This document shows, piece after piece, positions 1 through 40,696 of a DNA stretch of 64,000 nucleotides. A program made the translations under genes and the position numbers. The notes beneath the pieces are model-generated. The model searched no databases, had not been told where the DNA came from, and saw only the letters and a list, made by a program, of their open reading frames with translations. Within the stretch, counting starts at the first letter, position 1, and the number at the start of each line of letters is the position of its first letter. Where the stretch lies: assembly GCF_058153355.1 (NCBI RefSeq), contig NZ_CM177019.1; one strand, 5' to 3'.

Positions 1-726
1 ATCAACCAGCCCCTGCATGGATGCCAGCTCGTTACCGAGGTTGTACACGTAGCCGCTCATGGTCTGAATGCCATTGAGCACAAACACTTGTTGGTTTTCC
101 TGCGACAGCACGTTGCGCCCGTTCGGATACTTAATGCAGCAGGTTTCACACTCATCTTTTGGGCGGTCTTCCGAACGCGCGGTAAAGCAGCGGGCGGAGT
201 AGGCCAGCGGCAGATGACCGTAGCTCAAGACTTCCACTTCAAACTGGTTGCGAATGCCCAGCTCATCGCACTGATTAAGCAGATTCACCAGCCAGTCGCG
301 GGAAAGTTCCACCGGCATACACCAGCGCATCATTCCCTGTTTGAGCAATATTTTCAGCGTCACCGCGTTGTAGCAGTTCAGAGCGTGTCCGGCGACGAAC
401 GGCAGTTTGCGCTCAGCGCACATATTCACCACGCCGAGATCGCTGGCTTCAATCAGAAACTCACCGTTCTCAACATAGCGTTTCAGTTCGCCCAGTTCGG
501 AGGATGCCTGCACCAGCGCCAGCGTGGAGAGCACAATCTGCTTGCCACTTCCGGCGAGCGATTTTGCCATCTCCAGCCAGTCGCCAACTTTGGTTGCCCG
601 GCGTTTGCTACAGACCGCTTCACCGAGATAAATCACGTCTGCGCTGCTGGCGGCGGCCTGCTGATAAAAATCTTCCAGCGTCTCTTTTGGCCAGTACCAC
701 AGCACCGGCCCTAAGGAATATTTCAT
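1..726 (-). CDS. ubiV: U32-family protein UbiV (YhbV); N-terminal part only, C-terminus lies beyond window start
   Basis: Minus-strand frame open to window edge; ATG at 726-724 gives MKYSLGPVLWYW..., matching UbiV by recall. The listed + ORF 88-714 is its antisense. Confidence 0.8.
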   Translation of the reverse strand, partial: MKYSLGPVLWYWPKETLEDFYQQAAASSADVIYLGEAVCSKRRATKVGDWLEMAKSLAGSGKQIVLSTLALVQASSELGELKRYVENGEFLIEASDLGVVNMCAERKLPFVAGHALNCYNAVTLKILLKQGMMRWCMPVELSRDWLVNLLNQCDELGIRNQFEVEVLSYGHLPLAYSARCFTARSEDRPKDECETCCIKYPNGRNVLSQENQQVFVLNGIQTMSGYVYNLGNELASMQGLVD

Positions 727-734
727 TACTTTTC

Positions 735-1730
735 TCACTGCCATTTACGGTGATACGCGCCAAGAGTGGTTTGTGTGCCTTCGGACATCGACCCGAGCGT
801 CTCCATCCACGCGCTTTGCGGCACGAAGTTTTGCGGATCGGCCTTACAACGGTCGATAGCCTGACGCCAGACTTTCGCTACCTGGCTGACATACGCAGGG
901 CTACGCTGGCGGCCTTCAATTTTCACCGAAGCGATATTCGCCGCCATTAACTCTGGCAGTAGCTCAAGGGTATTGAGACTGGTTGGTTCTTCCAGCGCAT
1001 GATAGCGCTCGCCGTCCACCAGATAACGCCCTTTACACAGCGTCGGATAACCTGCGTTTTCGCCGTCCTGATAACGGTCGATCAGCACTTCGTTCAGGCG
1101 AGATTCCAGCCCCTGCGGCGTTTGCTGCCAGCGCACGAAACGGGCCGGAGAACATGCCCCCACGGTGTTGGGCGACTCACCTGTCAGATACGACGACAGA
1201 TAGCAACGACCTTCCGACATAATGCACAGACTGCCGAAAGCGAACACTTCCAGTGGTACAGGCGTGACCCGCGCCAGTTGTTTCACCTGATGAATCGACA
1301 ACACGCGCGGCAGCACCACGCGGGCAACGTCAAAATGGCGATGATAAAAGTGAATCGCCTCTTCATTGGTTGCTGAAGCCTGCACTGACACATGACGTTC
1401 AATATGCGGGTATCGCTCGGCGGCGTACTCCAGCATGGCGAGGTCGGCGAGGATCAGCGCGTCGGCACCCAGCTGCGCCGCCATATCCACGGCGCGCTGC
1501 CAACGGGCGTAACCGTCCGGATGCGCAAAAGTGTTAATCGCGATGTGAAGTTTGCGGCGATGTTGATGGACAAAACTCACCGCTTCCTGCAATTTTTTCT
1601 CGGTAAAGTTAAGGCCGGCGAAGTGACGGGCATTGGTATCATCTTTTAGCCCGATATAAACAGCATCTGCGCCGTTTTCGATGGCCGCCTTAAGCGCCGG
1701 GAGATTTCCGGCAGGGCAGAGCAGCTCCAT
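735..1730 (-). CDS. ubiU: U32 peptidase-family protein UbiU (YhbU), O2-independent ubiquinone biosynthesis
   Basis: ORF 735-1757; start set at internal Met (MELLCPAGNLPALKAA...) to match recalled ~331 aa length. Confidence 0.88.
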   Translation of the reverse strand: MELLCPAGNLPALKAAIENGADAVYIGLKDDTNARHFAGLNFTEKKLQEAVSFVHQHRRKLHIAINTFAHPDGYARWQRAVDMAAQLGADALILADLAMLEYAAERYPHIERHVSVQASATNEEAIHFYHRHFDVARVVLPRVLSIHQVKQLARVTPVPLEVFAFGSLCIMSEGRCYLSSYLTGESPNTVGACSPARFVRWQQTPQGLESRLNEVLIDRYQDGENAGYPTLCKGRYLVDGERYHALEEPTSLNTLELLPELMAANIASVKIEGRQRSPAYVSQVAKVWRQAIDRCKADPQNFVPQSAWMETLGSMSEGTQTTLGAYHRKWQ

Positions 1731-1938
1731 AATTTTTCCTGAAGGGTGCGCTATCAAAACGCAAAAATGTTAACGAACTGGGATTTTAGTTAACCTTGCA
1801 GCGACAATTTTTGATTTAAGGCAGTTAAAGTTGTATTGGTGGTAGCAGCAATTTCATATGGAATTGTTGATTTATACCGCTATGTTATTTTTCTGATATG
1901 GCAAAATAGGATGATTGTTGAAACAGGGAGTAAAACTC

Positions 1939-2463
1939 GTGTTGGATAAACTGCGTTCCCGTATTGTGCATTTGGGGCCATCTCTGTTGAGTGTACCGGT
2001 AAAACTGACGCCATTTGCGCTAAAACGCCAGGTTCTTGAGCAGGTCTTAAGCTGGCAATTCCGCCAGGCGCTGGATGATGGCGAGCTGGAGTTTCTTGAA
2101 GGGCGCTGGTTAAGTATTCATGTGCGTGATATTGACCTGCAATGGTTTACCTCGGTGGTGAATGGCAAACTGGTCGTTAGCCAGAACGCGCAAGCTGATG
2201 TGAGTTTTAGTGCCGACGCCAGCGATCTGCTGATGATTGCGGCGCGTAAACAAGATCCGGATACGCTCTTCTTCCAGCGTCGGCTGGTGATTGAAGGCGA
2301 TACGGAGCTGGGGCTGTATGTGAAAAACCTGATGGACGCCATTGAACTGGAGCAAATGCCGAAAGCCTTACGCATGATGCTGCTGCAACTGGCGGATTTT
2401 GTTGAGGCGGGAATGAAAACCGCGCCTGAAACCAAACAGACATCGGTAGGTGAACCATGCTAA
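1939..2463 (+). CDS. ubiT: SCP2-domain lipid carrier UbiT (YhbT)
   Basis: ORF 1915-2463; GTG at 1939 preceded by GGGAG gives 174 aa; divergent from ubiUV. Confidence 0.82.
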   Translation: MLDKLRSRIVHLGPSLLSVPVKLTPFALKRQVLEQVLSWQFRQALDDGELEFLEGRWLSIHVRDIDLQWFTSVVNGKLVVSQNAQADVSFSADASDLLMIAARKQDPDTLFFQRRLVIEGDTELGLYVKNLMDAIELEQMPKALRMMLLQLADFVEAGMKTAPETKQTSVGEPC

Positions 2464-2960
2464 TTCGAGTAGAAATTCCCATTGATGCGCCGGGTATTGA
2501 TGCCCTGCTGCGTCGTTCATTCGAAAGCGATGCGGAAGCGAAGCTGGTTCACGATCTGCGTGAAGATGGCTTTCTGACGCTGGGGCTGGTGGCGACAGAT
2601 GACGAAGGTCAGGTCATTGGCTATGTGGCATTTAGTCCGGTTGATGTGCAGGGCGAAGACCTGCAATGGGTCGGCATGGCACCGCTGGCGGTAGATGAAA
2701 AATACCGTGGACAGGGGCTGGCACGCCAACTGGTCTATGAAGGACTCGATTCGCTTAATGAGTTCGGCTATGCCGCAGTGGTGACGCTGGGCGATCCGGC
2801 GCTGTACAGTCGTTTCGGCTTTGAACTGGCGGCGCATCACGATCTGCGTTGTCGTTGGCCGGGCACTGAAAGCGCCTTCCAGGTACATCGTTTAGCGGAT
2901 GATGCGCTGAACGGCGTAACCGGTCTGGTTGAGTATCACGAACACTTCAATCGCTTTTAA
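2457..2960 (+). CDS. yhbS: GNAT-family N-acetyltransferase YhbS
   Basis: 167 aa ORF overlapping the ubiT stop; acetyltransferase-like sequence. Confidence 0.85.
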
Positions 2961-38428: not shown

Positions 38429-38998
38429 TCAATGAGAATCATGATTAAAATGATCTGGTGAAAAAAAGAGAATTTGCCAACAATCTGAAACATTGTCAGT
38501 TTTATTAAAATGATTAAATTCCGTTAAGATAACTTCTTTTTGCGTGAACTTTGCGCAAAACTTAAAAATTGTCTCCTTGATACACTCCAGATCTTTTCTA
38601 TTGATGGCTGAACAAGTACATTTTTCGCCAAAAGGTGAAAATGTGCCTACATCTAAAGTTTGTATTATATAATCATCATTTACTCCTGTAGAAATATCTA
38701 TGATGAATGGACTTCTATTTTCCGGTTGGATTCGGATCATTACAGAAGAAACATCACCTTTATAGACATTCAATGCAGTAATCGCAGATAATATTCTCCG
38801 CAATTCATTGCTTATGCTGTAAATTTCATTAACGTCATTTGTCGATATAATCTCGGCAAATTTTATTTTTACCTTCCAATAATCAATGTTTCTATTATAA
38901 GTGTTAACAGTTTCGTACATTGGTGGTATCGAAGGGGGTAAAAAATGTGAAACCGAATAACCTTTCATTGATGCCTGCCTTGTCATCATGACAAACAA
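38429..38998 (-). CDS. yhaB: Uncharacterized protein YhaB
   Basis: 189 aa ORF directly downstream of yhaC, AT-rich; start uncertain. Confidence 0.65.
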   Translation of the reverse strand: MFVMMTRQASMKGYSVSHFLPPSIPPMYETVNTYNRNIDYWKVKIKFAEIISTNDVNEIYSISNELRRILSAITALNVYKGDVSSVMIRIQPENRSPFIIDISTGVNDDYIIQTLDVGTFSPFGEKCTCSAINRKDLECIKETIFKFCAKFTQKEVILTEFNHFNKTDNVSDCWQILFFSPDHFNHDSH

Positions 38999-39206
38999 TA
39001 ATCAATGCTTATTTTCCTTGCACGGTTCGCTCACAACTATCAAAAAACGCTCAATTACCCGGCATTACAGTCAACGAAGCAAAATTCTGTGGTCTACAAC
39101 GATGTAAAGCACAACGAAAATCCTCCTTGTTCTCTTATTCTGATCGTATAGCGATGAACATCAATTATTCGTTTTGTGATCATCAACACAAAATGCTATT
39201 TAGTAA

Positions 39207-39581
39207 CTATGGTGACAGTAGAAACGAGGGGAAACGATTGCATTCACAAAATGACGTCCTGTAAGAAGGGTGAAAGTTGATGTTAATCAATTGTTCGAGA
39301 TGATCAATATCTGTATTCGAAATTTTAAAACATTGATAAAATAAATGTTTGCCCTCCAACAAATAGCGAGAAAAAATGTGACGTGCCGCATTATTTATCG
39401 CTGAAAATGATTTATTTATAATAAAATTTGATAACTTGCTCATAAAATTTAACTCAAAATTTGCCTGGTAATTATCCGCTAATTGCTTGAAATATGGTCG
39501 CAGCTGCTTTTTTTTATTAACCACATAACGAATGATGTTATCGCCATAAAATATGGTTATCCCTGTCATTTTTTTTGACAA
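39207..39581 (-). CDS. tdcR: Putative tdc operon regulator TdcR (start uncertain)
   Basis: AT-rich ORF divergent from tdcA, position as recalled for tdcR. Confidence 0.5.
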   Translation of the reverse strand: MSKKMTGITIFYGDNIIRYVVNKKKQLRPYFKQLADNYQANFELNFMSKLSNFIINKSFSAINNAARHIFSRYLLEGKHLFYQCFKISNTDIDHLEQLININFHPSYRTSFCECNRFPSFLLSP

Positions 39582-39757
39582 AAATCAGGGTTTATGCTGA
39601 TTTATATACTTTAACTTATTGATATATAAGAATATTTAATTGATACAGTGATGTCCAAAAAAGTATTGAAAGTTAATTTGTGAGTGGTCGCACATATCCT
39701 GTTCATTTCATTTTGATACACTTCATGCCGCCAATGAGGTTATTAACGTAGGTAGTT

Positions 39758-40696
39758 ATGAGCACTATTCTTCTTCCGAAAACGCAGCATCTGGTAGTCT
39801 TTCAGGAAGTCATTAGAAGTGGCTCTATCGGCTCGGCTGCAAAAGAATTAGGGTTAACTCAACCCGCCGTCAGTAAAATCATTAACGATATTGAAGACTA
39901 TTTTGGTGTGGAATTAGTGGTGCGGAAAAATACCGGTGTAACATTAACACCTGCCGGTCAATTGTTACTTTCCCGTTCCGAATCCATTACCCGTGAAATG
40001 AAAAATATGGTTAATGAGATAAGCGGTATGTCTTCTGAGGCGGTGGTGGAAGTCTCATTCGGTTTTCCTTCATTGATTGGTTTTACTTTTATGTCCGGGA
40101 TGATCAACAAGTTCAAAGAGGTGTTCCCGAAAGCGCAGGTTTCTATGTATGAAGCGCAACTGTCTTCGTTCTTACCGGCAATCCGTGACGGTCGCCTGGA
40201 TTTTGCGATTGGTACGTTAAGCGCAGAAATGAAGCTTCAGGATTTACATGTTGAGCCGCTGTTCGAGTCCGAGTTTGTGTTGGTAGCCAGTAAGTCCCGA
40301 ACATGCACCGGCACCACCACGCTGGAGTCGTTGAAGAACGAACAGTGGGTGTTGCCACAAACCAATATGGGGTACTACAGCGAGCTGCTCACCACGTTAC
40401 AAAGAAATGGCATCAGTATTGAAAACATCGTTAAAACCGACTCAGTCGTGACAATTTATAATCTTGTTCTCAATGCTGATTTCTTAACTGTAATTCCTTG
40501 TGATATGACTTCACCTTTTGGTTCTAATCAATTTATTACTATTCCGGTTGAAGAAACATTACCTGTGGCACAATATGCCGCGGTATGGTCGAAAAATTAT
40601 CGTATTAAAAAAGCAGCATCGGTTTTGGTGGAATTAGCCAAAGAGTATTCATCTTATAATGGGTGTAGACGAAGGCAATTAATTGAAGTTGGTTAG
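39758..40696 (+). CDS. tdcA: LysR-family activator TdcA
   Basis: 312 aa LysR-type regulator. Confidence 0.9.
   Translation: MSTILLPKTQHLVVFQEVIRSGSIGSAAKELGLTQPAVSKIINDIEDYFGVELVVRKNTGVTLTPAGQLLLSRSESITREMKNMVNEISGMSSEAVVEVSFGFPSLIGFTFMSGMINKFKEVFPKAQVSMYEAQLSSFLPAIRDGRLDFAIGTLSAEMKLQDLHVEPLFESEFVLVASKSRTCTGTTTLESLKNEQWVLPQTNMGYYSELLTTLQRNGISIENIVKTDSVVTIYNLVLNADFLTVIPCDMTSPFGSNQFITIPVEETLPVAQYAAVWSKNYRIKKAASVLVELAKEYSSYNGCRRRQLIEVG

Follow-up and report, generated by a model that had tools for sequence, protein, structure and literature searches.

Architecture and conservation of the Fnr-controlled divergent region between ubiT and ubiUV in Escherichia coli

Layout and conservation of the ubiU-ubiT spacer

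The DNA analyzed here (the window) is a single stretch of 64,000 nucleotides from E. coli, and this report deals with the spacer that separates ubiU from ubiT near its left end. The genes and translation signals of the locus are listed below by window position.

1-726, minus strand: 5′ part of ubiV, which follows ubiU in the ubiUV operon as its second gene and is truncated where the window begins (NCBIfam quinone_UbiV, 327.1 bits against a cutoff of 275; RefSeq annotation of identical loci)
735-1730, minus strand: ubiU coding sequence, 331 aa, ATG at 1730 (NCBIfam quinone_UbiU, 559.8 bits over 1-331; open reading frame list; E. coli annotation)
1731-1938, unstranded: ubiU-ubiT divergent control region, 208 bp, 34.6% GC
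1737-1740, minus strand: ubiU Shine-Dalgarno sequence, AGGA within TCAGGAAAAATT-ATG (read from the sequence; block 1731-1742 near-invariant in 80 species)
1926-1930, plus strand: ubiT Shine-Dalgarno sequence, GGGAG (read from the sequence; near-invariant)
1939-2463, plus strand: ubiT coding sequence, 174 aa, GTG start (open reading frame list; RefSeq annotation; NCBIfam UbiT, 153.6 bits)
2457-2960, plus strand: yhbS/hqbA, overlapping the ubiT stop and cotranscribed with ubiT (open reading frame list; PMC10710024)

UbiU and UbiV, both of the U32 family, and UbiT, an SCP2 protein, all exceed the curated NCBIfam equivalog cutoffs, and by its flanking genes the locus is the UbiT/UbiU/UbiV locus for O2-independent ubiquinone synthesis. 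An earlier note on this DNA, made from the letters alone, had described an AT-rich spacer of about 200 bp as the divergent control region of ubiT and ubiU-ubiV in this pathway. NCBIfam and RefSeq annotation agree with that description; the spacer measures exactly 208 bp, its GC content compares with 49.2% for the window, and the coordinates and motif strings that the note quoted are exact. The hqbA gene lies in the same operon as ubiT and is anaerobically coinduced with it (PMC10710024).

Through this region, E. coli controls the timing of its O2-independent ubiquinone synthesis. The earlier note's view of it as conserved backbone rather than novelty is borne out, as, of 5426 complete E. coli genomes, 5424 contain the stretch from 1400 to 2300, annotated there as ubiU/ubiT. 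The only bases at which the spacer departs from that of a K-12-like strain are 1746 and 1800, both outside the Fnr sites. One genome per species was then scanned across the family, which yielded 80 Enterobacteriaceae loci with UbiU proteins 93 to 100% identical. In all 79 species with enough upstream DNA to be assessed, ubiT is divergent from ubiU and 205 to 259 bp away. Mean identity to the window base over the spacer alignment of the 80 species was 75%, and the conservation is arranged in discrete near-invariant blocks.

Fnr sites F1 and F2 and their promoters

The regulatory features of the spacer on which the analysis turns are the following.

1811-1824, unstranded: Fnr site F1, TTGATTTAAGGCAG, centre 1817.5, activates ubiUVp (published mutagenesis, ChIP, matrix, conservation)
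1867-1880, unstranded: Fnr site F2, TTGATTTATACCGC, centre 1873.5, activates ubiTp2 (published mutagenesis, conservation, geometry)
1774-1776, minus strand: approximate ubiUVp start (1774/1775 from the published F1 distance; 1776 from the −10 geometry)
1783-1788, minus strand: ubiUVp −10 hexamer TAAAAT, assigned by position, 99% conserved
1834-1853, plus strand: ubiTp1 core, with a candidate −10 TATTGG at 1834-1839 and the published start at about 1847; GTATTG invariant
1899-1907, plus strand: ubiTp2 extended −10, TGgCAAAAT; TGGCAAAAT, TGGCACAAT, or TGGCAGAAT in 79 of 80 species (TGGCA[A/C/G]AAT)
1914, plus strand: approximate ubiTp2 start (published F2 distance; A1914 about 90% conserved)

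The region is an already known FNR-controlled switch with two Fnr sites and three promoters, and because this switch has been dissected before, finding it again adds nothing new. According to the text of Arias-Cartin et al. 2023 (mBio, PMC10470549), F1 and F2 are exactly the two Fnr 14-mers that were defined and mutated in that study; the motifs of the earlier note (ttgatttaaggc from 1811 and ttgatttataccg from 1867), which it had suggested comparing with published ubiTUV promoter mapping, correspond letter for letter to these sites. Start sites in that text were taken from the Thomason 2015 dRNA-seq data, with F1 lying 36 nt upstream of the ubiUVp start and F2 lying 33 nt upstream of the ubiTp2 start and 19 nt downstream of the ubiTp1 start. 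Green fluorescent protein (GFP) fusions were assayed there in an fnr mutant with and without pBAD-fnr, and chromosomal site mutants were assayed by western blot. As the text reports, anaerobic UbiV needs F1, anaerobic induction of UbiT needs F2, the two sites are independent of each other, and ubiTp1 is Fnr-independent; O2-independent ubiquinone is further described as important for nitrate respiration, anaerobic pyrimidine synthesis, and gut colonization (PMC10470549). Anaerobic induction, on which the earlier note had made its reading depend, is documented, with yhbUV induced under O2 limitation in three genera, namely, E. coli, Dickeya, and Pectobacterium. The sequences of F1 and F2, the mutational need for them, the FNR dependence of ubiUVp and ubiTp2, and FNR occupancy in vivo have been shown by others.

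Coordinates given on the older K-12 record were converted to NC_000913.3 with an offset of 1,977 bp, taken from the lengths of the two records. FNR ChIP located F1 in 2006/2007 and in 2013. The ChIP-chip study of Grainger 2007 gives yhbT/yhbU with the motif TTTAACTGCCTTAAATCAAAAATT, which is the reverse complement of window positions 1806 to 1829, and the ChIP-seq study of Myers 2013 counts yhbUV as an operon activated directly by FNR and gives its peak as 3,299,421. After conversion (ubiU ATG at 3,301,485 in NC_000913.3), this peak falls on window position 1817, the centre of F1, although ChIP cannot resolve sites 56 bp apart. A footprint or gel shift on F2 alone was not found in the available parts of the published accounts.

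Other proteins have ChIP-exo sites at this locus in Gao 2021. The strongest YbcM site (3299238-3299252, signal-to-noise 470) lies between the operons according to that study, but the same 1,977-bp offset moves it to about 1986-2000 in the window, at codons 16 to 21 of ubiT, just inside the gene and outside the spacer. A weak YciT site (signal-to-noise 4.12) converts to about 1845-1874, over the left half of F2. The YciT site list also holds the FNR targets dmsA, yjjI, and ybiY, which suggests that YciT and FNR sites overlap.

Each of the two sites departs from TTGAT-N4-ATCAA at three positions, all of them in a degenerate right half, the left half being perfect; the right half of F1 retains the C and A, and that of F2 is mismatched at three of five positions. 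They are oriented alike, 56 bp apart, and have in common the 13-mer AATTnTTGATTTA (1806-1818 and 1862-1874), a coincidence seen in 2.3% of shuffles. Matches to the consensus with up to three mismatches number 354 in the window (294 expected) and 2 in the spacer (1.84 expected), a count that 56% of dinucleotide shuffles reach. A stricter pattern, in which a perfect TTGAT half is joined by the key C of the opposite half, was counted three times in the spacer versus 0.12 expected, and 0 of 2000 shuffles reach this number. The third sequence with a perfect half, GGGTGCGCTATCAA (1744-1757), is not conserved; its ATCAA makes up the loop of a hairpin in the ubiUV leader described below, and the match is probably due to chance.

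The matrix scan proposed in the earlier note was carried out with an FNR matrix made from 30 motifs published by Grainger et al., the ubiT/ubiU locus being left out. F1 scored 13.96 bits, which ranks 2 of 63,983 window positions and exceeds the training-site median of 12.05, while F2 scored only 2.81 bits and ranks 541 of 63,983. Sequence alone singles out F1, not F2; F2 is not predictable in this way and is established by conservation, geometry, and published mutagenesis. Where the note had read the TTGAT sequences as possible half-sites for an anaerobic regulator such as FNR, the regulator was correct, as the published F1 and F2 show, but the sequences belong to full 14-bp sites and are not isolated halves.

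The best FNR matrix score in the window, 18.6 bits, belongs to a perfect palindrome, TTGATGTTAATCAA, at 39277-39290 in the tdcR/tdcA region. Among the FNR motifs of Grainger 2007, the one given for "yhaB" has a core that differs from this palindrome by one base. The surrounding tdcR-tdcA stretch (38700-39900, about 34% GC) is a rare allele: of 5426 complete E. coli genomes, only 18 match it at 99% or more, and 5373 match it at 80 to 90%.

Both TTGAT halves are invariant in the 80 Enterobacteriaceae species. In F1, conservation reaches 99.7% over the ten specified bases versus 83% at the N4 positions, and the specified bases of F2 are 90% conserved versus the spacer mean of 75%. Within F2, the figures are 100% for TTGAT and about 100% for CCGC; other genera have G in place of A1876, so that the site there mostly reads TTGATTTACGCCGC, and the right half in most genera is GCCGC, one base further from consensus than that of E. 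coli. The distance between F1 and F2 is 56 bp in Escherichia versus 65 to 67 bp elsewhere, a difference of 9 to 11 bp.

Spacing to the promoters is fixed. The centre of F1 lies 32.0 bp from the centre of TAAAAT in 77 of 80 species, which implies a position of −41.5, and the centre of F2 lies 31.0 bp from that of CAAAAT, again in 77 of 80; the three species with other spacings look like string-search artefacts. Published starts place F1 at about −42.5 to −43.5 (about −43.5, not the canonical −41.5, from the published ubiUVp start) and F2 at about −40.5, and starts derived from the −10 hexamers agree with them within 1 to 2 bp. The ubiUVp promoter with F1 accordingly has both the FNR-site sequence and the approximate −41.5 position of a class II promoter, and ubiTp2 with F2 has the position. 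To the published picture, the present data add the site scores, the conservation of both sites throughout the family, and the constant 32 and 31 bp to conserved −10 hexamers, a family-wide footprint from which the weak F2 and the spacing of both sites are seen to be strongly constrained.

A sigma-70 consensus scan of the spacer found no good −35/−10 pair at any published promoter, as is expected of activator-dependent promoters. The sole match, TTGATA-17-AATTAT on the minus strand from 1757 to 1729 (0.7 expected), fits no published promoter and was set aside. The TTGATT of F1 sits 17 bp upstream of TATTGG (1834-1839) and, judging from this position, could double as the −35 element of ubiTp1; F2 is located at about +26 of the P1 transcript. 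With F1 as a P1 −35 element and F2 at that point of the transcript, FNR occupancy might therefore move ubiT transcription from P1 to P2. The unchanged UbiT level reported in the text for the published F1 mutant speaks neither for nor against such a shift.

The strain E. coli EEC_W5 (NZ_CM130020.1) carries an IS1 in the spacer at window positions 1849-1856, with an 8-bp target duplication (CAATTTCA). The insertion parts F1 and ubiTp1 from F2, ubiTp2, and ubiT and is a natural promoter-splitting variant.

We hold with great confidence that the spacer is a bidirectional O2-responsive region in which FNR at F1 and F2 drives ubiUVp and ubiTp2, respectively, and ubiTp1 is FNR-independent. Under anoxia, dimeric [4Fe-4S]-FNR binds the two 14-bp sites. 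F1, about 41.5 to 43.5 bp upstream of the leftward ubiUV start and overlapping the −35 region, would serve class II activation, so that production of UbiU and UbiV is confined to low O2; the rightward ubiTp2 starts about 40.5 bp downstream of F2, which would support class II activation of ubiT-yhbS. From its start between the sites, ubiTp1 provides basal aerobic UbiT without FNR. In the presence of O2, FNR loses its cluster and its binding, ubiUV falls silent, and ubiT declines to the P1 level. In this scheme, we infer the class II contact mechanism and the direct binding of FNR to the weak F2.

The low score of F2 (2.81 bits versus 13.96), its degenerate right half that varies between genera, a ChIP peak centred on F1, and the weak YciT site over its left half would all suit an arrangement in which F1 is the sole true FNR operator and F2 is a half-site that needs another factor or receives FNR recruited cooperatively from F1. 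We consider this unlikely, as a fusion with ubiTp2 only is strongly activated by pBAD-fnr, and mutation of F1 leaves ubiT expression unaffected while mutation of F2 abolishes anaerobic induction, according to the text of PMC10470549; in addition, F2 has an invariant TTGAT, an invariant CCGC, and an unvarying distance of 31 bp to the −10. It is scarcely conceivable that the TTGAT motifs are chance occurrences in AT-rich intergenic DNA with no regulatory role. Loose matches are indeed abundant throughout the window and as frequent in the spacer as expected, but the motifs are invariant in 80 species while their flanks drift, their distances to the −10 hexamers are fixed, and no shuffle reproduced the count of perfect halves with the key C. 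Published mutagenesis and ChIP also contradict chance, and the mutant phenotypes already refute it.

An ArcA box consists of TGTTA-type direct repeats with an 11-bp (or 22-bp) centre spacing. The earlier note had offered ArcA as an alternative regulator, but no TGTTA direct repeats 11 or 22 bp apart are present in the spacer. Conserved GTTAA-containing motifs at 1769, 1789, and 1824 could be taken to favor ArcA or some other anaerobic regulator, rather than FNR, as the main controller; they are, however, 20 and 35 bp apart and do not make an ArcA box, and dependence on fnr has been demonstrated in the text of PMC10470549, the main text of which does not mention ArcA. A literature search found no paper tying ArcA to yhbU or yhbT, and a check of the spacer by eye for IHF and NarL motifs gave no convincing match. 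Control by ArcA or another such regulator is very improbable, and FNR acting at both F1 and F2 is the reading retained here.

Candidate features beyond the Fnr sites

Three further features of the spacer are listed below.

1747-1763, minus strand: stem-loop in the leader of the ubiUV mRNA, with the E. coli sequence UGCGUU-UUGAU-AGCGCA (folding, cross-species pairing)
1769-1794, unstranded: GTTAAC-N14-GTTAAC dyad (hexamers 1769-1774 and 1789-1794) around the ubiUV −10 and start, near-invariant in Enterobacteriaceae
1835-1852, plus strand: broken PdhR-type palindrome, ATTGGT-GGT-AGC-AGCAAT, with the right half displaced by 3 bp and three mismatches

No published description of any of them was found in the literature as far as it was available, and they are potentially new, chiefly the PdhR-type palindrome that Escherichia seems to have lost.

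In about 70 of 75 non-Escherichia Enterobacteriaceae species, a palindrome of the form ATTGRY-N3-RYCAAT overlaps the ubiTp1 region at a fixed position between F1 and F2, centred 24.5 bp rightward of the centre of F1 (spacers L005-L079). The version ATTGGT-N3-ACCAAT is perfect in 12 species and present with one mismatch in 27, exemplified by GTATTGGTAACACCAATAAT in L044 and L010, and it occurs nowhere else in the 464 kb of these loci. By its letters, the palindrome of the other Enterobacteriaceae fits the PdhR box AATTGGTnnnACCAATT (PMC7660256). All five Escherichia sequences read ATTGGT-GGT-AGC-AGCAAT, a palindrome apparently broken by a 3-bp duplication of AGC. Taking a PdhR operator as a 15- to 17-bp palindrome, (A)ATTGGTnnnACCAAT(T), the best that the window spacer offers is ATTGGTGGTAGCAGC, with three mismatches, and no such operator is present there.

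The inner GT/AC positions of the palindrome vary by transitions and the outer ATTG/CAAT is fixed, and hence the cognate protein may not be PdhR. We found no paper linking PdhR to ubiT or yhbT; yhb genes are absent from the K-12 PdhR gSELEX paper (PMC7660256), as judged from its main text and tables, and from the LldR gSELEX paper, as judged from its main text, and the 2024 EHEC/Citrobacter PdhR paper is one without ChIP data. We tentatively raise the possibility, which we regard as rather doubtful, that the region has further layers beyond the Fnr sites, comprising a putative PdhR-type (FadR-subfamily GntR) operator over ubiTp1 that was lost in Escherichia and a role for the leader stem-loop. 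If this were true, the "constitutive" ubiTp1 of E. coli would reflect a lineage-specific loss of metabolite-responsive (perhaps pyruvate-responsive) repression of UbiT. A real operator would tie the supply of UbiT to central carbon status in Salmonella, Klebsiella, Citrobacter, and Enterobacter, and E. coli would be the exception, not the model.

The leader stem-loop was examined by folding and by cross-species pairing. A 24-nt leader segment of E. coli folds with −6.4 kcal/mol (z of −3.49, P of 0.01), and 64 distinct leaders, whose stem sequences are very different, have a median z of −2.19, with 61% at a P value of ≤0.05; the 62-nt fold that takes in the ubiU leader and start region is not significant (z of +0.82). 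RNAalifold, run on a MAFFT alignment, missed the hairpin because stems of unequal length lie out of register, and it was replaced by per-species shuffles and a hand-written structure. In alignment A1, the hand-written 8-pair helix was 73.3% paired versus 35 to 54% in slid controls and carried 42 double-sided changes versus 13 to 26 in those controls, a level reached by 0 of 500 shuffles, in what is a weaker, partly fitted test, as two of the sequences had served to define the helix. The stem-loop is kept by compensatory changes across the Enterobacteriaceae and is missing in Pseudocitrobacter (L027, L034, and L052) and in L024 and L049. No U-run follows the stem-loop, and it is therefore not a terminator; as a guess, it may tune the stability or translation of ubiUV mRNA. 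A search of Rfam 15 at permissive thresholds gave no match above the gathering score, and a match to CRISPR-DR22 (21.9 bits versus a gathering score of 50, E value of 0.055) was dismissed as chance.

The GTTAAC hexamers, 20 bp apart, matched no known regulator motif. The dyad that they form is absent from the distant loci L083 and L085 (see below).

Distant loci and known systems

An ordinary search for UbiT homologues gave close relatives only, and more distant loci were recovered through 50%-identity UbiT representatives.

L083, UbiT 65% identical: F1 identical; F2-like TTGATTTAAGCCGG; TGGCATAAT
L085, UbiT 52% identical: TTGATGTAAGGCAG; TTGATCCCGGCACG 31 bp from TGGCAGAAT
L089, UbiT 45% identical: 139-bp spacer (L089:2362-2500) with a single FNR-like site, TTGATTCAGTGCAG
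L088 and L091, UbiT 49% and 46% identical, respectively: ubiT not divergent from ubiU; FNR-like site absent

F1 is kept in L083, L085, and L089, and the extended −10 of ubiTp2 is kept in L083 and L085, the two loci in which the two-site architecture persists. In L089, the single site is centred at an equal distance of 32 bp from two −10 hexamers, TATAAT toward ubiU and TAATAT toward ubiT, and one symmetric class II site could serve both promoters. A single shared site of this kind is the likely ancestral form of the switch, as far as the compared spacers indicate, and its duplication may have given rise to the enterobacterial form, which has two sites and a 13-mer direct repeat.

Pseudomonas aeruginosa has the same three genes for O2-independent ubiquinone synthesis, which there form a predicted single ubiUVT operon downstream of molybdopterin genes rather than a divergent pair (bioRxiv 10.1101/2020.03.22.002311). 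Control of that operon by Anr was considered and not adopted, as the text of the preprint holds no regulator data. The E. coli promoters resemble class II FNR promoters in having a 14-bp TTGAT-N4-ATCAA-type site over the −35 region, 31 to 32 bp from the −10, and no good −35. Unlike typical class II FNR promoters, F1 and F2 each have one perfect half, F2 is missed by the matrix scan, and a third promoter, independent of FNR, lies between two such promoters that point away from each other. Arias-Cartin et al. 2023 studied the locus in K-12; the window is from a different strain of E. coli, with a best match of 99.9% to strain 2013C-4282. The locus is the same, and its 14-mers are identical in sequence, order, and distances to F1 and F2 as given in the text for K-12 (PMC10470549), with nothing of substance differing between the two.
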